The translations under genes were made by a program, and so were the position numbers. The notes under the pieces are model-generated. The model made no database searches, was not told where the DNA came from, and saw nothing but the letters and a program-made list of their open reading frames with translations. From positions 23,469 through 87,468 of the forward strand of contig JBCCQN010000005.1 in the NCBI GenBank assembly GCA_039024315.1: a stretch of DNA of 64,000 nucleotides. Direction: 5' to 3'. Positions within the stretch are counted from its first letter, which is position 1. Each line of letters starts with the position of its first letter. This DNA is from Bacteroidota bacterium. Its GTDB lineage: Bacteria > Bacteroidota > Bacteroidia > J057. Positions 32,913 to 59,190 of this stretch are shown piece after piece.

Positions 32913-33875
32913 TTAGATCTGTTTTTTGAGGACTAATTGGCGATAATAATGACCAAGAGGAGTTAGCTTACAACTTTTGCTATTCATAGCTGCATCGTAC
33001 ATATGCTCCTCGCCCACTGGTACCACAAAACCTACTTTGGCAAACTTTTGTAATAATCGGAATTGTCTCTCTTTTTCTGTGTCTCCGAGTTTTGCTTCTG
33101 GTTCATAAGCGGGCTCTAGAGGAAAGTTATCTAGTTTACCTTGAAACAGTGGCTTCAATTCGCGAATAACTTCAGCTTCCAGAGCTGGTTTACATTTACG
33201 GATTACTGACTCACGCTCCAAATAGGCAGCGAACTGTGGCCTTTGATCTGCTAAAGAAAGTAACTGCTCTAAATGCCGGTACAAACTTCCTAAAGTTACT
33301 TTTCCGACTACATCTCCTGCTTGTCCTTTCAGACCATCGATTAAATGCTTGGTAAAGATGCTACCACCTGCACTCATTTCAGCACTTTGCTCAGAGCTTG
33401 CAGCTGCCAAAATAGCCATTCCTTTCCGAAGACTGGTTCTGTCCTCCCCCTGAGAGGAAATTTGAAACATTTCCCCACTGAAGCAACAGTCTAGGATGAT
33501 AATCACCTCATCATGATGGCTATTCATCGCTAAACTTTGCAGCTCAAAAAAAGAGATACCAGGATCATCTAGTGTGGCTTCAGAGGTACATAAAAATCCG
33601 ACTCCGCCTTTGACACTACCATGACCTGAAAAATATAACAGACATTCGTCATAGTTTTTATCGTTAAAAAACTTAATCAGTTTGTTGCGTAATTGGCTTC
33701 TTCTGACCGTTTCTCGGTCATTTAACAATGTATCACAATGATAATTGTACTTCCCATCATGATCTTTACTTAAGATTTCTTCTAGGCGCTCTGTCTCTTT
33801 AATCACGCCGGACAAATTGGGAAACTTTTTACTCTTATAATTTTCAATGCCGATCAAGAGGGCTTTGCGATCCAT
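32913..33875 (-). CDS. Caspase-fold (Peptidase C14-like) protease with a C-terminal domain of about 95 aa and unknown function
   Basis: 320 aa beginning MDRKALLIGIENY. The catalytic His context is LLYFSGHGS and the catalytic Cys context is IIILDCCFSG. A 1-nt gap separates it from the upstream ATPase gene. Confidence 0.8.
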   Translation of the reverse strand: MDRKALLIGIENYKSKKFPNLSGVIKETERLEEILSKDHDGKYNYHCDTLLNDRETVRRSQLRNKLIKFFNDKNYDECLLYFSGHGSVKGGVGFLCTSEATLDDPGISFFELQSLAMNSHHDEVIIILDCCFSGEMFQISSQGEDRTSLRKGMAILAAASSEQSAEMSAGGSIFTKHLIDGLKGQAGDVVGKVTLGSLYRHLEQLLSLADQRPQFAAYLERESVIRKCKPALEAEVIRELKPLFQGKLDNFPLEPAYEPEAKLGDTEKERQFRLLQKFAKVGFVVPVGEEHMYDAAMNSKSCKLTPLGHYYRQLVLKKQI

Positions 33876-33876
33876 A

Positions 33877-35361
33877 TTATTCAGGCTTGGTTTGGATTTG
33901 TAAACACATGTGTCGGAGATAAGAAATTTGCGCTTCCTCGGCTCCTAACTGATGTAATTGAGAGATTGCCATATGTAAAAGGCTAACACAATATAACTTT
34001 AATGCGATATTTTCCTTCACTTCGGGGTCATTTTGATCCGGTTCTTCGATGATGACCTCCGTATCCGTGGCCAGAACGTGAATAAAATCGCGTTCGAGAT
34101 CCTCATTACTGATTACGGCAGCTTCGTATTCATCGGGCAATTCAGCCGTGGTATTGACTAGGACAAGACGAGATTTGGCATTTTTTGCGCTTATTTTTGT
34201 TACGATATCCTTCCAAGTCATCAAAGCACTTAGGCCACAAAAACGATAATGCTGGGCGAGAAAATGCTGCCAATGCAAACGACTGATCGCGTATGCTAGG
34301 ATTTGATTTCGGTATTGCCCTAAAATACGCTGTAAAATATGAGGCTGATCGTTCGCGAGTAGCGTAAAAAATGAAAATACCTGCTTGTTTAGGTAGGCCG
34401 GTAGCTCATGGACGATAGGATCATCAGGCAGGAGTTGGTTACGGGTGGCAGTAAGCTTGAGATGAGGACTGTTGACCAATACCTTGATAAAAGAAAAATT
34501 AGCTGGCAAAAAATTATCCTCTGTTTCGCAAACCCAAACGCCTTTTTTAAAAACCTGAGCTCCGTTGGTTTCTGCGACTTCCGATATCGGGCCTACACTC
34601 AAAAAAATCTGACTACCATCAAGTGCAGTATGCACATAGTTCGCCAAAGACTGGTGTTGGGGATAGTAGTTTGTTAGAAGTGCTTGGGCTTCATTTTTGT
34701 TCCAGAGGATAGCTTGTGCGGTATCTTTTTTTACGGCTTGCCGAACGCTTCTCTCGACAAACTCACAGCTTGGATTTATAGCCTCCGCTCCCTTTCCGAT
34801 CAAGATTGGTTTGCGTAATAAGGCAAAAGTACGCCTAATATAAGCCTCCAAGGCTTCTCTTTTGGCTAGGTGCAAAAACTGAGGCTTAAGCACCAATTTG
34901 ACACTAGTCCCTTGGGGTGCATCCTCTTGCTCAAATAATTGCATTTGATTTTTGCCCTCTAGCCAAAGCAGTCGATTCGCATGCGTACTCTCTGCTTGCC
35001 GACTAACAATTTCAATTCTTTGCGCCAAGGCAAAACCGCTCAGACGTCCAATCCCAAATTCCCCTAAGCAAGACTCATCTTGTCTTGCCACTTTATTGCC
35101 AAATATTGAAAAGTTTTTGACTAACTCCTCTCGACCCATGCCCCTCCCTTGGTCTGAAATGATGATAGCACCTTCTTCAATATCGACCCTAATGGGCTTA
35201 AATTCATCATTTTGATAAGCATCAAAGGCATTTGATATATAGGCTCTCAGAGCAATCAAAGGCTCTGGTAAATAGCTTTCACGCCATAATTGGAGCACAT
35301 GGGCAAATTTGCTTTGTAGATTTACCGTTTGTCCAAACTCTGTGCTGAGTTGGTTAGTCAT
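33877..35361 (-). CDS. Divergent Hsp90/HtpG-like GHKL ATPase
   Basis: 494 aa. The Bergerat-fold motifs appear in Hsp90 order: LRAYISNAFDAY (N-box, compare LRELISNASDA), IIISDQGRGMG (G1, DxGxG) and LGEFGIGRLSGFALAQRIEIVS (G2, compare IGQFGVGFYSAFLVA). Confidence 0.7.
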   Translation of the reverse strand: MTNQLSTEFGQTVNLQSKFAHVLQLWRESYLPEPLIALRAYISNAFDAYQNDEFKPIRVDIEEGAIIISDQGRGMGREELVKNFSIFGNKVARQDESCLGEFGIGRLSGFALAQRIEIVSRQAESTHANRLLWLEGKNQMQLFEQEDAPQGTSVKLVLKPQFLHLAKREALEAYIRRTFALLRKPILIGKGAEAINPSCEFVERSVRQAVKKDTAQAILWNKNEAQALLTNYYPQHQSLANYVHTALDGSQIFLSVGPISEVAETNGAQVFKKGVWVCETEDNFLPANFSFIKVLVNSPHLKLTATRNQLLPDDPIVHELPAYLNKQVFSFFTLLANDQPHILQRILGQYRNQILAYAISRLHWQHFLAQHYRFCGLSALMTWKDIVTKISAKNAKSRLVLVNTTAELPDEYEAAVISNEDLERDFIHVLATDTEVIIEEPDQNDPEVKENIALKLYCVSLLHMAISQLHQLGAEEAQISYLRHMCLQIQTKPE

Positions 35362-35563
35362 AGATTCCTAAATAGATTGATTTAACGTTCTCCCCATAGG
35401 GGGGACGCAGCCTCAGCTGCGCCCCAGTCGAGAGAGAGTAAAAATGAAAATTAAATTGTTTAGGTGTGCATTCTGGCCTGAGTACGATAATCGCATAATG
35501 CTTTGGTTTGATCAATACCAGAAAAGTGGTAGTTATTTATTTTGTGTTCTCGGTTTTGGTTTA

Positions 35564-35669
35564 CTGCTGCGCAGAACGATTGTCTTGAGGGTGCGGCATG
35601 CATGCTCGCACCTACCTTTTGTAGCGGCGTATTGCATGCGCCGCAAGGGATGATCGTTCTGCAAAGCAG
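35564..35669. repeat. MITE/REP-like inverted-repeat element (repeat family 1 variant)
   Basis: The termini ctgctgcgcagaacgat (35564-35580) and atcgttctgcaaagcag (35653-35669) are inverted repeats with 2 mismatches. The interior holds two GC-rich hairpins (gtgcg-gcatgcatgc-tcgcac and gcggcg-tattgcat-gcgccgc). Confidence 0.6.
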
Positions 35670-35729
35670 CAAAAACAAAAAAAGGCTGACAGAGAAACTC
35701 TATTAGCCCTTGCAGAAATACTTTTTTGC

Positions 35730-36392
35730 CTAGTCAGTGCCTAAGGAGGGATCAATTAGGCCTATCTGGACGGCTTTCATCAATAGCTCTTGACTATTCC
35801 GAGCCCCTAGTTTTTTGCGTATGTTACGAAGATGGGTATGCACCGTATTGGGAGCGATTTGTAGATTTACACCGATCTCGTCACTGGTTATGCCTTTGGC
35901 CAAAACGCGAATAATCTCTAGTTCTCTTTTGGAGATTTTGGGCTTCGGTTTTTGTTCTTCTCGGATAATTTCTGGCAGCATTTTCATTACATCTTGCCCA
36001 TAGTATTCTCTACCAGTAGCAACCTCCCTTACCGCGAGAACAAGTTCGTTAGCAGAGTCATCTTTAAAAATATAGCTGCGTACACCTAAGCGTAAAGCTC
36101 GCTTAACATAAACCTTAGCTTTGTGGTTAGTTAGTATCACAATGCCAATATCCTGACTAGGATATTTTTCATAGATAGCCGCGGTTGCCTCTAAACCCGT
36201 TTGTCCTGGCATCTCAAGGTCCATGATCACCACGTCGACCTCGTGTTTGTGCTGATCGACTAAGTCAACGACTTCTAGGCCGTTGGTAGCATGAGCAATT
36301 ACATTTACTCCCTCTTCATACTTTAAGAGTGCCGCCACTCCTTCGCGAAACATTTGTGTATCCTCAGCAAGGATTACATTAACTATTTTCAT
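35730..36392 (-). CDS. NarL/LuxR-family response regulator (REC + GerE HTH)
   Basis: The phospho-acceptor context is VVIMDLEMPG and the HTH is SKRELEIIRVLAKGITSDEIGVNLQIAPNTVHTHLRNIRKKLG. I chose the start at 36392 (MKIVNVILAED) by alignment with the paralogue; the track ORF extends to 36410. Confidence 0.9.
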   Translation of the reverse strand: MKIVNVILAEDTQMFREGVAALLKYEEGVNVIAHATNGLEVVDLVDQHKHEVDVVIMDLEMPGQTGLEATAAIYEKYPSQDIGIVILTNHKAKVYVKRALRLGVRSYIFKDDSANELVLAVREVATGREYYGQDVMKMLPEIIREEQKPKPKISKRELEIIRVLAKGITSDEIGVNLQIAPNTVHTHLRNIRKKLGARNSQELLMKAVQIGLIDPSLGTD

Positions 36393-36393
36393 G

Positions 36394-38622
36394 CTAAACT
36401 GGAATTTCAATATTGACCGTGGTACCTCGCCCTAGCTGAGAGTCATACTCACAACTCCCTCCTAAGCTATTGGTGATCGTGTGGATGATTTTCACTCCTT
36501 TCCCTTCAAATTCCTTATCAGCCGTATCGAAGCCTACACCGTCATCAATCACCATCAAGTTTAGGAGATCATCTACCTCTGTTATGTTGATTTCGATATT
36601 TTTGGCGCCGGAGTGTTTGACCGCATTATTGAGCAATTCGGATATTAATGAGTAAAGTTTGACGCGAGTATCCAAACCCAATTTTTCAGCATTAAAATCA
36701 AACACGGGCTCTACTGCTATATTACTGTATTGAGAAGTCTTTTGACACAGTTCTTGGACAGCATCGGCAAAGTAGCGCTTAGCCAAGACAGTCTGCCCAT
36801 TCTCGTGAGAAATCGCTCGAACTTTTTCTTGAATTTGAGAGAGGTTCTCTTCTAAGTTTTGCCAAACTTCTTGATTCAAAGCTCCAAATCCTTGTTTAAA
36901 TGGATGCTTTGCTAAAGTAAAGAGAGCCCCCACGTCATTGTGTAAAGCCAAAGAGATACGCCCTCTTTCTTCTTTTTGTCCTTTGAGCATCGCCAAGATA
37001 GAGTCCGCTTTATTGCTTTCGATCAGATTCTCGATTTGGAGCTTTTGATATTGGACTTCGGCTTTCTGTTTTTCCGCTTCCGCTTTTTGTCTTTCCGCTT
37101 CCGCTTTTTGCTTAGCTATTTCTACCTTTTGGGCTTCAACCTCAGATTCCTTATATGCGGCTAAAATACGCTGTTTTTCAGCCTCGGATTTTTGCTTAGT
37201 CTCTTTAGTTTTTTGAAGATAAAAGATCACACCTACAATCAAAGTAAAAAGGACAAAAACCAATATGAAGTTTCGGACTAGTATTTTTCTCTTCGCCGCC
37301 GCGGCCTGCTCATACAATTTGAGGTTAGTATCAAAGTGTGAGGCTTCGGCTCGTCGTAAGCTACCATTGATCATCTCGACAAGACTATCTTCGGCCTGGC
37401 TGTATTGGTAAGCTTGATCGTAGTCTCCCAATTGAGCATTGAGAAAAGCTAAGTCATCAAGAACGCGACGATGAAGGTCGTTTTGTTGGGTATTAGCGAC
37501 TTTTTCCAAACTTTCACTTAAAGAGATCTGAGCTGATTTAAACTGCTTGGTTTCCAGATACAATTCGCCCAGATTAATGTACGCCAATACCGCACTTCTA
37601 GAACTTTGCGCTCGAGATAAAGCTACCGCCTGTTTATAGTATTGCTCTGCTTTTGTAAAATCTTTTTGTTTTTCGTGAATGGTACCAAGTTGGTTCATTA
37701 ACTTGGTAAAGTCTTCATACTCAATTTGATACTGATCTATTTTCTTATTGAACGCCTTGAACGCTTCTTCCCCTATTGTTAATGCCTCATCTTTTTTTCC
37801 CATTTCCCCCCAAAGTCCAATCAAAGCTACTTCAGCTTTTATCAGAAGAGGAATATTGTTTACTTCTTTGGCGTAAGTCAATAAGTCTTGAAGCTGTGAT
37901 TCGGCCGAATCATAGGCTCCTAATTCCAAATAAATGTTTCCGAGGGAAAGACGATTATAGGCAACACCGGCCTGTTCTTCCAATTCATGCATTACAGATA
38001 AGCTATTGAGGCTATTCTCCAAGGCTTTGTCCAGTTCTCCCTTCTGAAATAAGGCATCAGATAAGTTGATCTGTATATAGGCCGCTACTTTATCATCTTC
38101 AATGTCTTGCCATATATCTAGACCTTTTTGGAAGTGAAATACTGCGGAATCCAAGTTCCCCAACTTCTTATGAATTATCCCTAAATTGTTATGACTATCC
38201 CCTACATTTCCAGTCAGGTCTAGTATTTTTCTCAGGCTCAGCGCCTTTTGCGCAAATTCTAAGGCTTCAACAAGCTCATTTTGACGTTGGGCGATGGTAC
38301 TTTTTTGACTGTAGCAGTCTGAGGCAAGATGAGGATAATCTCTTTTGAGTGCCAATTGTAAAGTCGAATCAAGCATATGTGAAGCTTTTGTATAATCCTT
38401 ACCTGCTTGGATCAGCTCAAAGGCATCATTATTAATAGCCCACAATCCTTCTAGGGAAGTCGAGTTTTGGGCTGATAAATTCGTAGAAGCCATAAAAAGA
38501 AGTACAAATACAACCGCAAATTTTCTTGTTTCTATCAATCCAAAAAACATATATAAGAGCTTATTTATGGCAAGTCTGTGATCATTCTTTTCTGTTGTTA
38601 TCAAACCCTTCATAGGGGACAC
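36394..38622 (-). CDS. TPR-repeat sensor histidine kinase (HisKA_3 + HATPase_c), copy 1
   Basis: 742 aa. The order is an N-terminal signal/TM, about 380 aa of TPR-like repeats, a TM (FILVFVLFTLIVGVIFYL), a KAEAE coiled coil, the H-box ALHNDVGALF, the N-box ELLNNAVKHSGA and the G-box DDGVGFD. Confidence 0.85.
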   Translation of the reverse strand: MSPMKGLITTEKNDHRLAINKLLYMFFGLIETRKFAVVFVLLFMASTNLSAQNSTSLEGLWAINNDAFELIQAGKDYTKASHMLDSTLQLALKRDYPHLASDCYSQKSTIAQRQNELVEALEFAQKALSLRKILDLTGNVGDSHNNLGIIHKKLGNLDSAVFHFQKGLDIWQDIEDDKVAAYIQINLSDALFQKGELDKALENSLNSLSVMHELEEQAGVAYNRLSLGNIYLELGAYDSAESQLQDLLTYAKEVNNIPLLIKAEVALIGLWGEMGKKDEALTIGEEAFKAFNKKIDQYQIEYEDFTKLMNQLGTIHEKQKDFTKAEQYYKQAVALSRAQSSRSAVLAYINLGELYLETKQFKSAQISLSESLEKVANTQQNDLHRRVLDDLAFLNAQLGDYDQAYQYSQAEDSLVEMINGSLRRAEASHFDTNLKLYEQAAAAKRKILVRNFILVFVLFTLIVGVIFYLQKTKETKQKSEAEKQRILAAYKESEVEAQKVEIAKQKAEAERQKAEAEKQKAEVQYQKLQIENLIESNKADSILAMLKGQKEERGRISLALHNDVGALFTLAKHPFKQGFGALNQEVWQNLEENLSQIQEKVRAISHENGQTVLAKRYFADAVQELCQKTSQYSNIAVEPVFDFNAEKLGLDTRVKLYSLISELLNNAVKHSGAKNIEINITEVDDLLNLMVIDDGVGFDTADKEFEGKGVKIIHTITNSLGGSCEYDSQLGRGTTVNIEIPV

Positions 38623-38738
38623 AATTTTTATTTATAAGACGAGGAGTCATAGATTTTTAACCGATGGCCACCTAATTAGCTTTGTGGGACTTACTAAGTA
38701 GCCTGCAATTAAATCAACGGCTCATCAATAATTCATCA

Positions 38739-39419
38739 TTAGAATTTGTTTAAGTTTTCTTGAATCTTAATAAGGTACTCATATACTTTTAGACCGATCT
38801 CTAAGTTTTCGAATCGAATGGTTTTGTGATTAAAACTCCCTAACTCTTTGGTAAAAGCAGGATCTTTTAAACAATTTTCAGCATTCAAACACTTAAAATG
38901 GATTATTTCTACTGCTGGACCAACATTCGTATTGCCTGATTTGTGGGGTAAATGCTCAATACTTATTAACACATCCTTCAAATTTCCAAGTATTCGTCCT
39001 TTGGACGCAGAACCCATATCAAATGAAAAGTTTCCATGACTGTCGAACTTGACAACTGTTCTGCCATTCTTGTTTAATAAATCCTCTAACTCCTTGACAG
39101 GATTTTGATAATCTTCTTTTTGCCGTTTGGAAGTTTTTGGTTCCTCATATAAGAGGCCAATAATGTCAAGGTTTGAAATGAACTCACTGATGCTAACCAC
39201 TAATTTATTCCGCTCAATATTTCCATCACTTTCACTGACTAAATCTAATCTCATTTTCCGCATTAACTCTTTATGTCTTAATCGAAAGTTGACAAGTTCA
39301 GTTTTCTGATTGTCTGGAAGAGTTAACGAACTAATACTCTGAAGGCACTGAAAAATATCTTCAGAACATATTTCCAAAAGTTTATTCTTAGTCATCGTTT
39401 TGTCAGTTATGAGCTTCAA
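38739..39419 (-). CDS. Hypothetical protein (AT-rich orphan-like gene)
   Basis: 226-aa ORF, visibly more AT-rich than the surrounding genes. It has a helical N-terminal about 95 aa and a beta-rich C-terminal half. I recognise no motif. Confidence 0.5.
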   Translation of the reverse strand: MKLITDKTMTKNKLLEICSEDIFQCLQSISSLTLPDNQKTELVNFRLRHKELMRKMRLDLVSESDGNIERNKLVVSISEFISNLDIIGLLYEEPKTSKRQKEDYQNPVKELEDLLNKNGRTVVKFDSHGNFSFDMGSASKGRILGNLKDVLISIEHLPHKSGNTNVGPAVEIIHFKCLNAENCLKDPAFTKELGSFNHKTIRFENLEIGLKVYEYLIKIQENLNKF

Positions 39420-39491
39420 TCAAGATCATACCGCTAAGTATTTCACCGTCCCTTCGACTATAACAATATATACCCATACTACTAAAAAGCG

Positions 39492-39533
39492 ATGATTAAT
39501 ACTATTTTTTTAATAAAAAATAGTATTAATCAT
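39492..39533. repeat. 42-bp near-perfect palindrome
   Basis: atgattaatactatttttt (39492-39510), taat, then aaaaaatagtattaatcat (39515-39533). The arms are 19 bp and perfectly complementary. Confidence 0.7.
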
Positions 39534-39881
39534 TGCACAAATGACTAAAAAATAATTAAGCAGATAAGAAAATTATAGTACTATTACTGTAAACTCTCCG
39601 GTCGCAACAAAAAAACAGAGCTTCCTAGCATAGGAAAGTACGCAGAGAAATTCTGTTTTTGGCAGTGCGAATAAGGTATTTGTGTCTATGATGGTACAGG
39701 CCCTACCACTACAATCAAAAGTAGCGTTTCACATGTGCTTGTTTCTTTTGTAACTCTCGTTTCAATTTAAATTGTTAATGAGAACGATTTAGCTTTCTGC
39801 ATTTATCTCTCCTTAGGCAACAATTATTTCAAAGGCCTAGAGTCAAAGTAGAGCTCAATGCATGATGCCGAAATACTGAGC

Positions 39882-40556
39882 TTAAAAGGTTTGGTGCTTT
39901 TCACTTTCAGATTCTAGTTCAGGGGATATCAGGCCTTCTTTTATTGCCCAAACAACCAATTCAACCGTATTCCCCAGATTCAACTTCTGCAACATATTCC
40001 TGCGATGGGTGTGGACCGTATTTGCAGAGATGAAGAGTTTATTTGCGACTTCCTCTGTAGTTAACCCCTGTTTTAAAAGCTCAACAATTTGAATTTGACG
40101 CTTTGATAATTTTGGCTTGGGGGGTTCATTAGCTTCTCTAATAATTTCTCTTTGTAATTTCACCAACTCTGCACCATAATATTCCTCCCCAGAAGCAACA
40201 GTCCTAATTGCAAGCATAAGTTCATCATAATAATCTGCTTTAAGGATGTATCCTGGAATCCCAATAGTTAGGGCACGACGTAAGAATGCTTTACCTTTAT
40301 GGGTAGTCAGGATCACAATACCTACTCCTTGATATTTTTCTTTTATCTCGATGCTAGCTTCCAGCCCCCCTTTTTTCGGCATTTCAAGGTCCATGACAAC
40401 CAGATTAACCTCATGTTTATGCTTTTCGACGAGTGTAAGAACTTCTTCCCCATCTTCAGCCTGGGCGATTACCCTGACTCCTACCTCATCTTTGAGTAAA
40501 GCCCTAATACCGGCTCTAACAATGTGCATGTCTTCTGCTAAGATAATATTGATCAT
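39882..40556 (-). CDS. NarL/LuxR-family response regulator (paralogue of 35730-36392)
   Basis: It has the REC context LVVMDLEMPK and the HTH SKRQIQIVELLKQGLTTEEVANKLFISANTVHTHRRNMLQKL. The start overlaps the kinase stop by 4 nt. Confidence 0.9.
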   Translation of the reverse strand: MINIILAEDMHIVRAGIRALLKDEVGVRVIAQAEDGEEVLTLVEKHKHEVNLVVMDLEMPKKGGLEASIEIKEKYQGVGIVILTTHKGKAFLRRALTIGIPGYILKADYYDELMLAIRTVASGEEYYGAELVKLQREIIREANEPPKPKLSKRQIQIVELLKQGLTTEEVANKLFISANTVHTHRRNMLQKLNLGNTVELVVWAIKEGLISPELESESEKHQTF

Positions 40557-42592
40557 TTTGCTGATGCTATAGGTATTTTGATTTTCACTGTTGTTCCGTG
40601 ATTTATCTGAGAATCATACTCACAATCTCCATTCAAATTCTTCACCCTACTGAAAATATTCCTCATACCGTCTCCTGTAGGATTTCGGATAAGCGAGGAC
40701 GAAATTCCTTGCCCATCATCTTCGACCATAATTTCGCAATCCAAGGCTGTGATAGTAAGGTAGATTGTAACCAGATCAGCATTTGCATGCTTAAGCGAAT
40801 TATTCAAAAGTTCTATTATTATCGGATAAACTTGCATTTCGAAGTTAGAATCGAGTTCTGCTGAATCATCAATTGTGATGTATTGCTCGATCTCAGGGGG
40901 ACTACTTTGGTTTAGTTTATCTACTAATTCTTCAATAGCAGCCTTTAGACCTAACCGAGTTAAAACACTTGATTTTAGATTCTGTGAAATATTATAAATC
41001 TCGTTACTTACCTTTCTTAAGGTATCCTTGAGGGGGTGATTAGGTACATTCTCTCCTATCTGCTTTGATGCTAAGGTCAACAATGCCCCCACTTCATCGT
41101 GGAGCCTTTTTGCAACTCTTAATCTTTCCGCTTCTTGCCCTTCGGATTTTGCCAGTACGAATTTATTCTCATTTTCCTGAATTAGTTTTGCGATTTCCGC
41201 TTTCTTCTCATCAACAATCCTTTGTTGTTGTAACCTTTTCCTTCTTTGCTGGAAATACAGAATAAGCCCAATAAGAGAAATCAGCAATACCAGAATTATG
41301 GCATTTCTCAGGATAGCATTTCTCTTCGCCGCCGCGGCCTGCTCATACAATTTGAGGTTAGTATCAAAGTGTGAGGCTTCGGCTCGTCGTAAGCTACCAT
41401 CTATCATCTCGACAAGACTATCTTCGGCTTGGCTGTATTGGTAAGCTTGATCGTAGTCTCCCAATTGAGCATTGAGAAAAGCTAAGTCATCAAGAATGCG
41501 ACGATGAAGGTCGTTTTGTTGGGTATTAGCGACCAATTCTAATCCCTTTTTGAGATGTACCTTCGCTGAATCATATTTCTCCATTTCTAGGAAAAGCTCT
41601 CCTAAATCAATATTAGCAAAGGCTTCGTTTCGCAGGTTTATGCCTTTTGAAAATGCCATAGCTTGTTTAAAGTATACTTTGGATTTTTCATAATCCTTTT
41701 TGCTCTTCCAAAGTATACCTAGTAAGTAGGAAACCTTACCAAGGTCCTCATTTTCAATTTGATATACCTCAATATATTCGTCGATATTTTGGAAGACTTC
41801 TTCTCCAATGGTTAAAGCTTCTTTTTGCCTACCCGAGTTGAGAAAAAGTCCCGAAAGACAACTTTTCACTTTTACCTCTAATGGTATATTCTTAGTTTCT
41901 TTAGCAAATTTTAGGAGTGCTTGAAATTGAGATTCCGCCGAGTCAAATGCGCCTAGTTCAAGATAGATATTTCCTAGAGTAAGTCTAGTATAGGCAATCC
42001 CCTGTTTTTTTTTGAGCCTAATTCTAGACTCTAAGCTATAGATTGCTAATTCTAGCGCTTTATCTAATTCTCCTTTGTGATATAGGGCATCTGCCAAATT
42101 ATTTTGAAATAAGGCAACTACTGATTCATCTCCAATCATTTGCCAAATCTCTAAACCCTTTTGAAAATGAAATACAGCAGAATCTAAATCCCCTAGCTTC
42201 TTGTGAATAATGCCCAATCCATTATGGCTATCGCCGATCTTGCCTTTACTGGCTAGGCCTTTTCTGATCGATAGTGCATGCCAAGCATAGTTTAATGCAG
42301 GCTCCAAATCATCTAGTCGTTGTGCCAAGGTACTTTTTTGACTGTAACAATCAGACTCTAGGCTATCAAATTCAAATTTGACCGCTAGTTCTAAGGTAGA
42401 GTCGAGCAAATGAGTAGCTCTGGTAAAATCTCGTCCTGATCTGATCAAAGCATAAGCTGTATCGTTTAGAACCCATAATTCTTGCTCTAACTCAAACAAT
42501 GTATTTATTGGTTCGGCTTTAAGGCCGCTAAAGCAGAACAATAAGCACATAAATGCCCCAGTAAGCTGAAAATTCAGACTACTCCTTAACAT
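40553..42592 (-). CDS. TPR-repeat sensor histidine kinase (HisKA_3 + HATPase_c), copy 2
   Basis: 679 aa with the same architecture as copy 1. The H-box is RLHDEVGALL, the N-box ELLNNSLKHANA and the G-box DDGQGIS. Confidence 0.85.
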   Translation of the reverse strand: MLRSSLNFQLTGAFMCLLFCFSGLKAEPINTLFELEQELWVLNDTAYALIRSGRDFTRATHLLDSTLELAVKFEFDSLESDCYSQKSTLAQRLDDLEPALNYAWHALSIRKGLASKGKIGDSHNGLGIIHKKLGDLDSAVFHFQKGLEIWQMIGDESVVALFQNNLADALYHKGELDKALELAIYSLESRIRLKKKQGIAYTRLTLGNIYLELGAFDSAESQFQALLKFAKETKNIPLEVKVKSCLSGLFLNSGRQKEALTIGEEVFQNIDEYIEVYQIENEDLGKVSYLLGILWKSKKDYEKSKVYFKQAMAFSKGINLRNEAFANIDLGELFLEMEKYDSAKVHLKKGLELVANTQQNDLHRRILDDLAFLNAQLGDYDQAYQYSQAEDSLVEMIDGSLRRAEASHFDTNLKLYEQAAAAKRNAILRNAIILVLLISLIGLILYFQQRRKRLQQQRIVDEKKAEIAKLIQENENKFVLAKSEGQEAERLRVAKRLHDEVGALLTLASKQIGENVPNHPLKDTLRKVSNEIYNISQNLKSSVLTRLGLKAAIEELVDKLNQSSPPEIEQYITIDDSAELDSNFEMQVYPIIIELLNNSLKHANADLVTIYLTITALDCEIMVEDDGQGISSSLIRNPTGDGMRNIFSRVKNLNGDCEYDSQINHGTTVKIKIPIASAK

Positions 42593-42606
42593 TGTGTTGT
42601 TGTTTA

Positions 42607-43020
42607 TTAGTCCAAATCTATTGGACGACGAATTTCATTTGGTGAAGGCTGATTTACAGGATAGGAATTTTTCTTTTTACCATCCACCATTACAACAATT
42701 TCCATTTTTCGATCTGGAAATTCATCAAGCTTAAGTTCTTCCAAGTTTACTACATGAACCAAAGGAGTGGTAAAAGGGAAGTAAAGAACCTCCAAATCTT
42801 GGCTCAGGTATAACTCTACTTCGTAGACATCATCATTCTCTTCTGAAGTACTATTAACCTTTTCTTTTGGAGTAGTATTAACCTTCGAACCTGATGCAAC
42901 GTATCGGCAGTCGGAAACCTCTGTAACCGTGTGTAAGGCGTAGCCAACAAGTCGATCATTGCCTTCGTCATCTTTTTCAATGATTTTGGCGTAAGTGTAA
43001 TATAGATCGGTGATATCCAT
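42607..43020 (-). CDS. Hypothetical 137-aa protein (two beta-rich halves joined by an acidic/Ser-Thr linker)
   Basis: The ORF sits 17 nt after the metacaspase stop and 14 nt before the kinase start, on the same strand. The linker is KVNTTPKEKVNSTSEENDD. Confidence 0.55.
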   Translation of the reverse strand: MDITDLYYTYAKIIEKDDEGNDRLVGYALHTVTEVSDCRYVASGSKVNTTPKEKVNSTSEENDDVYEVELYLSQDLEVLYFPFTTPLVHVVNLEELKLDEFPDRKMEIVVMVDGKKKNSYPVNQPSPNEIRRPIDLD

Positions 43021-43037
43021 AATGAGTAGGGAGTATG

Positions 43038-43775
43038 TTAGATGGTAAAGGGAATTTGCTCTTTAAAGATTATACCGTGAGGCCCAGAGTAACTCAACAT
43101 TACCGATTGCTGAGCGCCATATTTTCTTCGTATTTTTTTCTTAATCGCTCGTTTAAAAGCCAAATAGTTTCCTTCAAACTCTCCCTCATCCCATACTTCT
43201 AGTAAGCATTCGGTAAAACGTCCGTTTTCCTCTCCCTCATATGCTTCTTGATTATCCGCTGTACCAGAAAGCAATATCACACTGGCCAGCGGTTCGTCCT
43301 GCTCCTCCGTAGGCACCTCTTCGACCGTATCTGCTAGACCATATTTATGGATAGAGCCACCATGACAACAATCTGACACCACCAGTATGCGAACTCCTGC
43401 TGGAAACTCACAAAATAGTTCGTTCAGTTTATCATCTACAAACAATCCATCAAATAAGCAAAGGTTTTCATCTTTACCGTCCCCCTCTTCCTCATCTCCA
43501 TTTTGGTCTTTGGTCTGATAACCATGCCCAGCGTATGTGAGTAAGAAGATATCCCCAGCTTTTACTTTGTCTTTGATAGATCGCACCCCACTAATAAAAG
43601 CGCTAATGGTAGCCTCCTCATTTTGCAAACAAGTAGTTTTAAACTTTTGTTTAGCAGCCAGATCGCGCATAGAGATCATATCCTTAACCGCAACATCTAA
43701 AGGCCACTCGCTGCCATTGTAGTCGTCAGAATTGACAAAATCCAATCCCACATGCAATGAATATCCGTTTGCCAT
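43038..43775 (-). CDS. Metacaspase/orthocaspase-like (Peptidase C14) protease
   Basis: The His context is FLLTYAGHGY. It is followed by the metacaspase-type acidic insert DQNGDEEEGDGKDENLCLFDG and the Cys context ILVVSDCCHGG. I chose the ATG at 43775 (MANGYSLHVGLDF); the track ORF starts at the TTG at 43811. Confidence 0.8.
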   Translation of the reverse strand: MANGYSLHVGLDFVNSDDYNGSEWPLDVAVKDMISMRDLAAKQKFKTTCLQNEEATISAFISGVRSIKDKVKAGDIFLLTYAGHGYQTKDQNGDEEEGDGKDENLCLFDGLFVDDKLNELFCEFPAGVRILVVSDCCHGGSIHKYGLADTVEEVPTEEQDEPLASVILLSGTADNQEAYEGEENGRFTECLLEVWDEGEFEGNYLAFKRAIKKKIRRKYGAQQSVMLSYSGPHGIIFKEQIPFTI

Positions 43776-43911
43776 AGCTTTAGTTTTAAACGCAACTTTC
43801 CTGTTTCTCAATTATCAAAACATTTGAGAAGACACGCTTTTCGAAAAATCAGTTATTGCAGATAATGTAACTTATGGAAAGATAATTAGCGATGTCTTAT
43901 ATACCAAATGT

Positions 43912-43936: not shown

Positions 43937-43965
43937 TTATTTTATCTATACCATTTTTCTGGTAT

Positions 43966-50780: not shown

Positions 50781-50937
50781 TAGGGATTTTAAGCCTTAGC
50801 CTAGCCGTAGGATTTTGTTTGTGAGCACCGCTGCGCGGAACGCTTCTCTCAAGCAGAATCATACGGCTAAGTTTTTCTGAGATAAGCGTTCTGCGCAGCA
50901 GGCGTCAAAAGTAAAGCTCTTTGATATAAAAAATCCC
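50781..50937. repeat. Nested inverted-repeat element (repeat family 1)
   Basis: The outer inverted repeat is tagggatttt (50781-50790) with aaaatcccta (about 50928-50937). The inner one is ctgcgcggaacgctt (50831-50845) with aagcgttctgcgcagcag (50884-50901). Confidence 0.55.
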
Positions 50938-51984: not shown

Positions 51985-52002
51985 AAGCGTTCTGCGAAGC
52001 AG
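51985..52002 (+). repeat. Repeat family 1 core motif aagcgttctgcgaagcag
   Basis: This is an exact copy of the 18-mer also present at 59031-59048 and 59173-59190. The following sequence, agt(c/g)a(t)aaaaaccg, is shared with the 59173 copy. Confidence 0.55.
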
Positions 52003-59030: not shown

Positions 59031-59190
59031 AAAGCGTTCTGCGAAGCAGGCTGAGAATTGTTGATTTGTTGAATGGTTGAATTTTTGAATAGCCGAATGA
59101 GCATCCTATTAACTCCCCCTCAACCCTTCAACCCTTCAACCCTTCAACACTTCAACACTTCAACCATTAAATAAGCGTTCTGCGAAGCAG
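59031..59190 (+). repeat. Composite repeat: two direct copies of the family 1 18-mer flanking an 8-bp microsatellite
   Basis: aagcgttctgcgaagcag occurs at 59031-59048 and 59173-59190. Between them are caaccctt x3, caacactt x2 and caaccatt x1 (59121-59168), with the inverted partner aatggttg at 59071-59078. Confidence 0.7.

Follow-up and report, generated by a model that had tools for sequence, protein, structure and literature searches.

A Bacteroidota gene island in which a two-component system probably controls two caspase operons

How might a bacterial caspase be controlled when the signaling partner that usually accompanies it is missing? This question is raised by a block of genes at 32913-43811 of a 64,000-nt stretch of DNA from a Bacteroidota bacterium (GenBank assembly GCA_039024315.1, contig JBCCQN010000005.1; hereafter the window), where two caspase-fold proteases stand together with two tetratricopeptide repeat (TPR) sensor kinases, their LuxR-type response regulators and an Hsp90-like protein. 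Our check of the open reading frames (ORFs) gave nine co-directional minus-strand genes, one fewer than the ten counted in a preliminary description of the same DNA. In transcription order these are casp1, small_137, HK3 and RR4, then, after a 462-nt gap, orph_226, HK6 and RR7, and, after a further gap of 368 nt, GHKL_494 and casp9 (Table 1). From comparison with homologous loci (labelled L followed by a number), the block probably represents one regulated suicide or defense island, in which a dedicated two-component system transcriptionally controls two caspase-bearing operons.

Both proteases carry a Peptidase_C14 domain recognized by Pfam and NCBIfam (43038-43811 and 32913-33875), and both His/Cys dyads are intact (SGHG/DCCFSG and AGHG/DCCHGG, the latter in casp1), as had been read from the sequence before. 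To place casp9, the relevant system is type IV Thoeris, composed of a ThsB TIR protein and a caspase (Rousset et al., Science 2025; bioRxiv 10.1101/2024.10.24.620036) that is now named ThsE (bioRxiv 10.64898/2025.12.03.692087). There, the TIR makes N7-cyclic ADP-ribose (N7-cADPR), which activates a promiscuous arginine-specific caspase whose C-terminal domain is the proposed ligand sensor, and the ThsE family has been established experimentally as an anti-phage effector (bioRxiv 10.1101/2024.10.24.620036). A total of 2527 homologs of casp9, about 316 aa long, were found at 35-44% identity and 98-100% coverage. The C-terminal domain is strongly conserved throughout this family (motif PVGEEHMY..AAMNSKSCKLTPLG); casp9 keeps 18 of its 22 conserved positions, and the three Hsp90-linked caspases described below keep 18-19 of the 22. 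Judged by its sequence, casp9 is a full-length member of the ThsE family, comprising both the protease and the C-terminal domain.

The partner is what sets this locus apart. Across 80 caspase loci from genomes spanning many bacterial and archaeal phyla, a ThsB-type TIR gene lies within 700 nt and on the same strand as the ThsE-type caspase in 68, the usual neighbor being a protein of about 137 aa, encoded directly upstream, that matches ThsB_TIR (PF08937). A profile built from 105 TIRs of these loci found none in any frame of the 64-kb window, and Pfam found none among the nine block proteins. The published detection rule asks for a ThsB/TIR_2 gene within one gene of the caspase (bioRxiv 10.1101/2024.10.24.620036, Methods); with no TIR in any frame, the window is not type IV Thoeris under this rule. 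Furthermore, casp9 and the other Hsp90-linked caspases share seven substitutions (C24V, D27E, G137F, E167M, W209A, K216A and W312R) at positions that are otherwise 94-100% conserved. C24 and D27 correspond in an alignment to the metacaspase motif GC(I/V)NDA, which contributes to the S1 pocket. These shared changes, S1-pocket equivalents included, suggest from the alignment a changed mode of activation or specificity.

In the slot upstream of casp9 stands GHKL_494. The Hsp90-like ATPase proposed for this gene holds up: it matches HATPase_c_3 and has Hsp90/HtpG-like N-terminal and middle domains, aligning to HtpG residues 52-378. The protein thus shares with Hsp90/HtpG the Bergerat ATP-binding fold and the middle domain, but it scores 86 bits against an NCBIfam HtpG cut-off of 371 and, lacking the C-terminal dimerization domain, is not a full three-domain HtpG. 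A further difference lies at codon 40 (35242-35244), where the catalytic Glu of Bergerat motif I is replaced by Ala (LRAYISNA); Glu is present in all nine other sequences of the alignment. Motifs II-IV are kept, and so is the middle-domain Arg. The related protein of L086 has the catalytic Glu, and the L001 copy is degenerate in motifs I and III, so that ATP hydrolysis, as far as motifs can tell, is not uniformly conserved in this clade.

This Hsp90-like protein is rare. A word-based homolog search returned a single relative, and clade size was taken from an exhaustive search instead: among 1.84 billion representatives, the clade of about 490 aa comprises three clusters at 50% identity plus a fragment. 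In four lineages the gene precedes a casp9-type caspase in the order regulator, Hsp90-like gene, casp9, and the pair is held at 1-nt spacing or overlap even though the lineages have diverged to 38-67% identity. Beside other ThsE caspases it is absent (79 non-syntenic genome loci). L033 encodes a GHKL protein there that is unrelated and MORC-like. With the source of the TIR-made ligand missing, this closely linked Hsp90-like protein is the obvious candidate for post-translational control of casp9.

We next turn to the kinases and regulators. Both genes had been read as TPR kinases of the HisKA_3 type. TPR and HATPase_c domains are present, and the kinases are of the NarX/UhpB/LiaS (HisKA_3) type with an invariant H-box His, although the Pfam HisKA_3 model itself gave no score at E ≤ 0.01. 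Residues E489, R490, H498, N598, D625, G627 and G629 are invariant across 13 kinases, leaving the His, N and G boxes intact. RR4 and RR7 show the expected Response_reg (E 1e-20 to 1e-23) and GerE (E 1e-16 to 1e-19) domains, with NCBIfam matches of NarL/UhpA/UvrY type and intact receivers in which the acceptor-Asp motif DLEMP is visible. The combination of a HisKA_3-type kinase with a GerE regulator is that of a NarL/LuxR-type two-component system. Among the block proteins, hydrophobic segments are confined to the two kinases, and since their TPR region is preceded by an N-terminal signal/anchor and followed by the only transmembrane helix, this region presumably faces the periplasm.

The preliminary description had advanced that an envelope-facing TPR sensor controls, or is co-regulated with, the caspases, and had proposed to look at the neighbors of caspase homologs in other genomes. 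Kinase/regulator pairs do recur there. A TPR kinase and a LuxR regulator lie co-directionally and directly upstream of a ThsE-type caspase in L003 (Phaeodactylibacter), L031, L035 (Kordia), L040, L064, L068, L075 and L081, which makes 8 of 13 among the Bacteroidota loci whose upstream sequence extends to 4 kb or more (phylum by record titles), and in none of the non-Bacteroidota loci sampled. L003 has the order casp1 type, small protein, kinase, regulator, casp9 type, with no Hsp90-like gene; the Lewinellaceae loci L087-L089, found via casp1, read SLATT, small protein, kinase, regulator, casp9 type, casp1 type. What is encoded between regulator and caspase differs from locus to locus. There may be no gene at all, or there may be ThsB TIRs, the 8xMP membrane protein (PF24838), members of a 263-aa family, a TPR-S protein or, as here, the Hsp90-like protein; an adjacent TIR is missing in about half of the kinase-linked loci. 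Taken together, the order kinase-regulator-caspase recurs in Flavobacteriaceae, Lewinellaceae, other Bacteroidia and the clade of the window, with kinases only 20-37% identical between groups.

Distance clustering of 13 caspase-linked and 46 unlinked metagenomic TPR kinases places eight linked kinases in an exclusive cluster in which all nearest neighbors are linked. The four kinases of the window clade form a separate exclusive cluster, whose next neighbors are linked and unlinked about equally, and the L040 kinase is an exception in that its nearest neighbor is unlinked. A caspase of this kind lies within 10 kb in only one of 41 loci with unlinked kinases. The 80 metagenomic loci of the broad kinase family contain one caspase/TIR set, on the opposite strand and beside a short non-TPR kinase; the kinase neighbors in these loci are otherwise ordinary genes.

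Intergenic comparison of four related lineages revealed ACCACTTTTCTGGTA-type palindromes 5' of both the Hsp90-like gene and casp1. The exact pattern TACCA-N6-TGGTA has two matches in 64 kb, against about 0.06 expected from base frequency, and these two copies precede the casp1-small-kinase-regulator unit and the Hsp90-like-casp9 unit. The palindrome upstream of casp1 (site 1) has counterparts in L001 and L086 at a matching relative position; that upstream of the Hsp90-like gene (site 2) recurs in L086, in L001 as a near match and in L084 with one mismatch, 150-176 nt before the ATG. The spacing between palindrome and start codon is maintained in L001, L086 and L084 even though the sequence around the motif has drifted apart. 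NarL recognizes heptamers (consensus TACYYMT) that are paired as 7-2-7 inverted repeats. With its 16 bp, TACCA-N6-TGGTA resembles such a site in layout, by which analogy the regulators may bind it.

The main kinase cluster has another 16-bp palindrome, TCCTCA-N4-TGAGGA, situated 5' of the kinase unit and again between regulator and cargo (Table 1). In 172 loci (about 2.3 Mb) its exact core is confined to 5, each of which is a kinase-caspase locus. Two palindrome sequences within one two-site architecture are what co-evolving pairs of regulator and operator would produce. As a separate observation, two exact TACCA-N6-TGGTA copies occur in L108 (10367-10382 and 11094-11109) just downstream of an unlinked metagenomic TPR kinase, and the L108 regulator may use the same operator type as the window.

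Four relatives were compared for the conservation of the island, which is bordered by the same flanking genes, those for a transglutaminase-core protein at one end and for SGNH hydrolase/RecJ at the other. The right-hand neighbor of the block is this transglutaminase-core protein of 1244 aa; the type IX secretion system adhesin that had been named in this place is one gene beyond. Overall, flanking proteins are 75-93% identical and island proteins 27-75%. More specifically, in L001 the flanks are 75-89% identical, the island proteins 27-57% and the regulator 73%; L086 and L083, two contigs of one metagenome-assembled genome broken inside the Hsp90-like gene, have flanks at 82-93% and island proteins at 49-75%; L084, a 2-kb contig, covers the regulator, the Hsp90-like gene (38% identical) and the N-terminus of the caspase; and L009 holds the flank alone.

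The relatives carry a single kinase/regulator pair and no orph_226. The L086 pair resembles HK6/RR7 (68% and 66% identity), and the L001 regulator resembles RR4 (73%). Since these single pairs match one or the other, the window carries both allelic types of the two-component system in tandem, together with an orphan gene. Two kinase/regulator pairs are therefore present as first described, and their duplication is a lineage-specific tandem of two allelic types that is no core feature of the island. A tract of about 215 nt shared by HK3 and HK6 is about 98% identical in DNA, the proteins being otherwise 47% identical; it covers the last periplasmic segment before the transmembrane helix, and such near-identity argues for recent, ongoing gene conversion.

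On the reading of a single regulated island, the periplasm-facing TPR domain of the kinase would sense an extracytoplasmic cue, and the kinase would phosphorylate its NarL/LuxR-type regulator. The regulator would then bind TACCA-N6-TGGTA before the casp1-small-kinase-regulator unit, giving both autoregulation and control of casp1, and before the Hsp90-like-casp9 unit; we suppose that it induces rather than represses. By homology to ThsE, casp9 would be the executioner, a promiscuous protease whose cuts after basic residues bring the cell to a halt. The rare Hsp90-like protein with its decaying ATPase motifs, in the TIR slot, might act as post-translational gatekeeper of casp9, whether as holder, activator or sensor. 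The ThsE precedent, the defense-type cargo of the sister loci and the fast divergence of the island together make an anti-phage or other defense role likely, and a periplasmic sensor fits non-phage cues too.

A bolder generalization, which we find attractive but doubtful, is that one class of Bacteroidota caspase suicide or immune operons is licensed from outside the cell. Danger in the surroundings, such as phage adsorption, damage to the envelope or material released by lysing neighbors, would be registered by a dedicated periplasmic TPR kinase, and a NarL-type regulator with its conserved palindromic operator would induce the death machinery. In the lineage of the window, TIR/N7-cADPR would have given way to an Hsp90-like pseudo-ATPase as the direct activator of ThsE.

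Several points weigh against the single-island reading. The damage to the Hsp90-like ATPase motifs, seen in two of four lineages, could also mean gene decay. The palindromes are short and could form weak hairpins, and some lie just after a stop codon, where a terminator role is possible; no such palindrome accompanies orph_226 or the second kinase-regulator unit. TPR-kinase/LuxR pairs form a very large generic Bacteroidota family with unrelated neighbors in most sampled loci, and the window kinases are a divergent clade that, beyond the immediate relatives, is only marginally closer to caspase-linked than to unlinked kinases. Finally, the putative ligand-binding domain of casp9, with most of its conserved positions in place, may still need a TIR-made nucleotide from elsewhere. 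This last point underlies a rival that we regard as unlikely, in which casp9 is a type IV Thoeris remnant that lost its neighboring TIR and is served in trans by N7-cADPR from a TIR elsewhere in the genome, the Hsp90-like protein is an independent neighbor or separate effector, and the two-component system merely tunes expression. The intact dyad and 18 conserved C-terminal positions of casp9 speak for it, as do the TIR genes in other kinase-linked loci (L035, L064, L075 and L081), the TIR-TPR gene that heads the L003 cluster, and the occurrence of relatives of the Hsp90-like protein in TIR contexts. It sits poorly, however, with a 64-kb window free of TIRs, with an Hsp90-like-casp9 pair kept this close in four diverged lineages, and with the substitutions that the Hsp90-linked caspases share at nearly invariant positions (C24V/D27E, W209A, K216A and W312R).

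The island might instead serve regulated proteolysis or programmed death on envelope or population cues, such as filament differentiation, lysis for public goods or stress dormancy, with no phage involved. We think this rather improbable. A periplasmic sensor would be unusual for phage sensing, the chromosomal site is fixed with no integrase or other defense genes adjoining within the window, and conflict-type caspase systems are overrepresented among bacteria that are multicellular or filamentous (PMC7159879). Against these stand the anti-phage activity of the ThsE family (bioRxiv 10.1101/2024.10.24.620036), sister-locus cargo that is typical of defense (ThsB TIRs, SLATT, 8xMP and a HerA/TrwB-like ATPase with a PADLOC mad8 match), and island proteins that diverge far faster than the flanks, as under an arms race. 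Least of all do we favor mere neighborhood, which would have casp1 with the small protein, two generic two-component systems and an Hsp90-like-caspase pair gathered in a variable low-GC hotspot, the kinase being functionally unlinked to the caspases. The size of the kinase family, most members of which have unrelated neighbors, and the variability of the island, with an insertion specific to the window genome, would fit such chance assembly. It is already disfavored by the recurrence of the kinase-regulator-caspase order across groups despite 20-37% kinase identity, by the exclusive clustering of eight linked kinases and by the common palindrome before both caspase units; recurring neighborhoods, palindrome and base composition together support the proposal that the TPR sensor controls the caspases or is co-regulated with them, and the refuting checks named in the preliminary description all turned out in favor of this proposal.

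Table 1. Features of the island in the window, and positions of the second palindrome type in homologous loci.
Feature	Coordinates	Strand	Description
casp1	43038..43775	-	Small stand-alone Peptidase_C14 caspase, 245 aa; Pfam PF00656, E 8e-21
small_137	42607..43020	-	Acidic cytoplasmic protein; homologs directly 5' of kinase
HK3	40553..42592	-	Sensor histidine kinase: N-terminal signal/anchor, TPR region of ~400 aa, transmembrane helix 427-445, DHp (H-box), HATPase_c
Gene-conversion tract in HK3	41319..41536	-	Partner tract in HK6, 37286-37503
RR4	39882..40556	-	NarL/LuxR-type response regulator (receiver and GerE helix-turn-helix); single regulator of L001 73% identical
orph_226	38739..39419	-	Orphan with weak EAD11-like helical N-terminus; GC 0.336
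HK6	36394..38622	-	Second TPR sensor kinase; probable start Met25, position 38550; single kinase of L086 68% identical
RR7	35730..36410	-	Second NarL/LuxR-type response regulator
GHKL_494	33877..35361	-	Hsp90-like: Bergerat N-domain and Hsp90 middle domain
casp9	32913..33875	-	ThsE-family caspase, 320 aa; dyad H85/C131
Palindrome site 1	43949..43964	.	16 bp, TACCAGAAAAATGGTA; ~181 nt 5' of casp1 ATG; candidate NarL/LuxR-type regulator site
Palindrome site 2	35516..35531	.	16 bp, TACCACTTTTCTGGTA; 162 nt 5' of Hsp90-like gene ATG
REP/MITE-like element	35560..35673	.	21-nt terminal inverted repeats
Leader element	35401..35438	-	CTCTCTCTCG box, then GC-rich hairpin; 40 nt 5' of Hsp90-like gene
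TCCTCA-N4-TGAGGA, L031	6636		
TCCTCA-N4-TGAGGA, L075	4992, 8094		4992 with 1 mismatch
TCCTCA-N4-TGAGGA, L081	1992, 5089, 7840		1992 with 1 mismatch
TCCTCA-N4-TGAGGA, L087	3335		
TCCTCA-N4-TGAGGA, L064	4751		2 mismatches

The composition of the block agrees with what had been noticed by eye. Its GC content is 0.399, compared to 0.454 for the rest of the window, making it the lowest-GC stretch of 10.9 kb in the window; GC at third codon positions (GC3) is 0.33-0.42 in the block and 0.44-0.51 in the flanks, and orph_226 is the most AT-rich gene. Scans for sigma-70 promoters and for terminators, which are ill-suited to Bacteroidota, gave no excess over shuffled expectation, and an Rfam search of the block gave no match.

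Of the less characterized genes, casp1 has an ORF that runs to a TTG at 43811, with the likely start at the ATG at 43775. Its family is rare (49 matches); it is syntenic in L001, L003 and L086, adjoins a ThsE-type caspase in L087, and has no similarity to casp9 detectable by BLASTP. For small_137, no match was found in Pfam, NCBIfam, PADLOC, profile or PDB-sequence searches, and a single-sequence AlphaFold2 (AF2) model reached a predicted local distance difference test (pLDDT) score of 39. The preliminary description had listed it after the metacaspase; its homologs accompany the kinase instead, standing immediately upstream of a TPR kinase in L001, L003, L086 and L087, as in the window. Small acidic ORFs also lie directly 5' of caspase-linked kinases in L031 (6741-7040), L035 (5449-5703) and L068 (6397-6663), and these share with that of the window (42607-43020) a similar acidic-[RK]-P-[GI] tail at the end, even in the absence of detectable homology overall. 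Such ORFs might encode a partner or ligand precursor of the kinase.

The orphan orph_226 belongs to no significant family. A weak Pfam EAD11 match (E 0.0024) is below cut-off, PADLOC and PDB sequences gave no match, the single-sequence AF2 model again reached pLDDT 39, and homologs were found in none of 176 loci, the gene being absent from L001 and L086. A stand-alone EAD11 protein of 81 aa is encoded upstream of a second TPR kinase in the Lewinellaceae locus L087 (1914-2159, minus strand), an arrangement that parallels orph_226, with its weakly EAD11-like N-terminus, in front of HK6.

The gap at 35362-35729 contains two further elements. The transposable-element-like repeat noted there earlier is a genuine family of the repetitive extragenic palindromic (REP) or miniature inverted-repeat transposable element (MITE) type, since the half-site CTGCTGCGCAGAACGAT is matched 10 times across the window where 0.08 matches would be expected. 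Its 21-nt inverted repeats are at 35560-35580 and 35653-35673, a copy occupies the same intergenic position in L086, and related half-sites occur at 50828-50901, 51986-52002, 59033-59190, 23124, 25915 and 31375. The leader element 5' of the Hsp90-like gene is conserved in four lineages, with compensatory change in 3 of its 10 pairs. It has no match in Rfam and could be an attenuator or another cis-regulatory RNA.

The homologous loci offered further observations. Where a ThsE-type caspase has no adjacent TIR, it can be adjoined by a membrane protein of the 8xMP family (L003 10982-11491, L040 3567-4061, L068 10603-11079, L004 and L005). The conserved family of about 263 aa lies between the regulator and the TIR/caspase genes (L035 9207-9998, L064 4846-5640, L075 8190-8981, L081 7912-8730 and L153 7754-8566); suspected from size and position to be a bacterial gasdermin, it found no support in Pfam, PADLOC or PDB-sequence searches. 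The next relatives of GHKL_494 are Hsp90-like proteins of about 740 aa at 24-29% identity, whose C-terminus weakly matches TIR effector models (E 4e-6). In L173-L176 their operon encodes proteins of 692 aa and 118-143 aa, a TPR-like protein of about 450 aa (457), the Hsp90-like protein and a Peptidase_C15; in L085 it encodes a TPR protein of 480 aa, the Hsp90-like protein and a TIR protein of 391 aa. Because these operons end in Peptidase_C15 or TIR, the family may represent a nucleoside triphosphatase core with a swappable downstream effector. They constitute a candidate separate system (L173 1045-7771, L174 2118-8916, L175, L176 and L085 6530-11498), for which PADLOC gave no match beyond the weak TIR-like tail and the literature searched held no description; the L174 operon adjoins a canonical TIR-TIR-caspase (type IV Thoeris) set and an integrase.

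The locus and its relatives suggest that, in one phylum, the ThsE executioner has been placed under a dedicated membrane sensor kinase, and that in one lineage a ThsE caspase has been uncoupled from TIR signaling and paired with an Hsp90-like protein. In the searchable literature we found no description of a kinase-linked ThsE operon or of an Hsp90-like and caspase pair. If true, these proposals would offer a tractable example of abortive infection that is licensed through transcription, possibly from outside the cell, with testable predicted operators, a new class of activator for a bacterial caspase, and a first functional handle on the large unstudied family of Bacteroidota TPR kinases.

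How does the island relate to known systems? The preliminary description saw no match to the systems it named. This stands for Detocs, gasdermins and type III-E CRISPR, and PADLOC matched no described system, returning generic models alone (caspase, TPR and the helix-turn-helix region of the regulators); it does not stand for the casp9 family, which is already described as ThsE. Detocs likewise combines a TPR histidine kinase with a receiver-domain partner in a conflict context. There, the kinase is soluble, one receiver serves as a buffer and another is fused directly to an enzymatic effector, and no transcription step is known to be involved. The window kinase, in contrast, is membrane-anchored with a presumably periplasmic TPR domain, RR4 and RR7 consist of Response_reg and GerE alone, with no PADLOC model beyond the generic TPR and helix-turn-helix matches, and the effectors are separate genes behind a palindrome. 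Craspase, a TPR-CHAT protease associated with a gRAMP effector, differs in that the window proteases are Peptidase_C14 and not CHAT, and that it is the kinases which carry the TPR repeats; Cas effector models gave no score, the only Cas-named matches (CasR and CARF3) fall in the helix-turn-helix region of the regulators, and CRISPR arrays were not searched. Known protease-effector modules pair a caspase or trypsin with EACC1, Pepco, MBL or a hydrolase (PMC12642450). The caspase casp1, encoded beside small_137, is similar in layout to these and to gasdermin modules, but small_137 matches none of their effector families and, in L087, adjoins the kinase apart from both caspases. Neither small_137 nor orph_226 has a Pfam, PADLOC or PDB-sequence match that would make it a gasdermin beside the protease, EACC1 has no match in the block, and NCBIfam caspase_w_EACC1 scores 111.5 bits for casp9 and 40 bits for casp1, against a cut-off of 140.

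The closest parallels are in control logic and in the effector. CapH/CapP, CapK/CapS and the Ambrosia kinase and receiver are modules in which an adjacent dedicated regulator licenses expression of an immune operon on a stress signal (PMC13373217, PMC13228613, bioRxiv 10.1101/2025.09.30.679545). The window follows the same logic with other protein families; those modules respond to intracellular cues such as DNA damage, whereas the window sensor would be a periplasm-facing TPR kinase restricted to Bacteroidota. Type IV Thoeris, described in 2024/25 as a two-gene TIR and caspase system triggered inside the infected cell, shares with the window a full-length ThsE caspase that retains the catalytic His/Cys and the C-terminal domain proposed to bind N7-cADPR, and Flavobacteriaceae sister loci have complete TIR and caspase pairs behind a similar kinase and regulator. 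The window differs in having an Hsp90-like protein in place of the TIR, clade-specific changes in casp9 at family-invariant sites, S1-pocket equivalents among them, and in adding a dedicated two-component system and a second caspase. By analogy, the island resembles an inducible abortive-infection module that shares its effector with type IV Thoeris.

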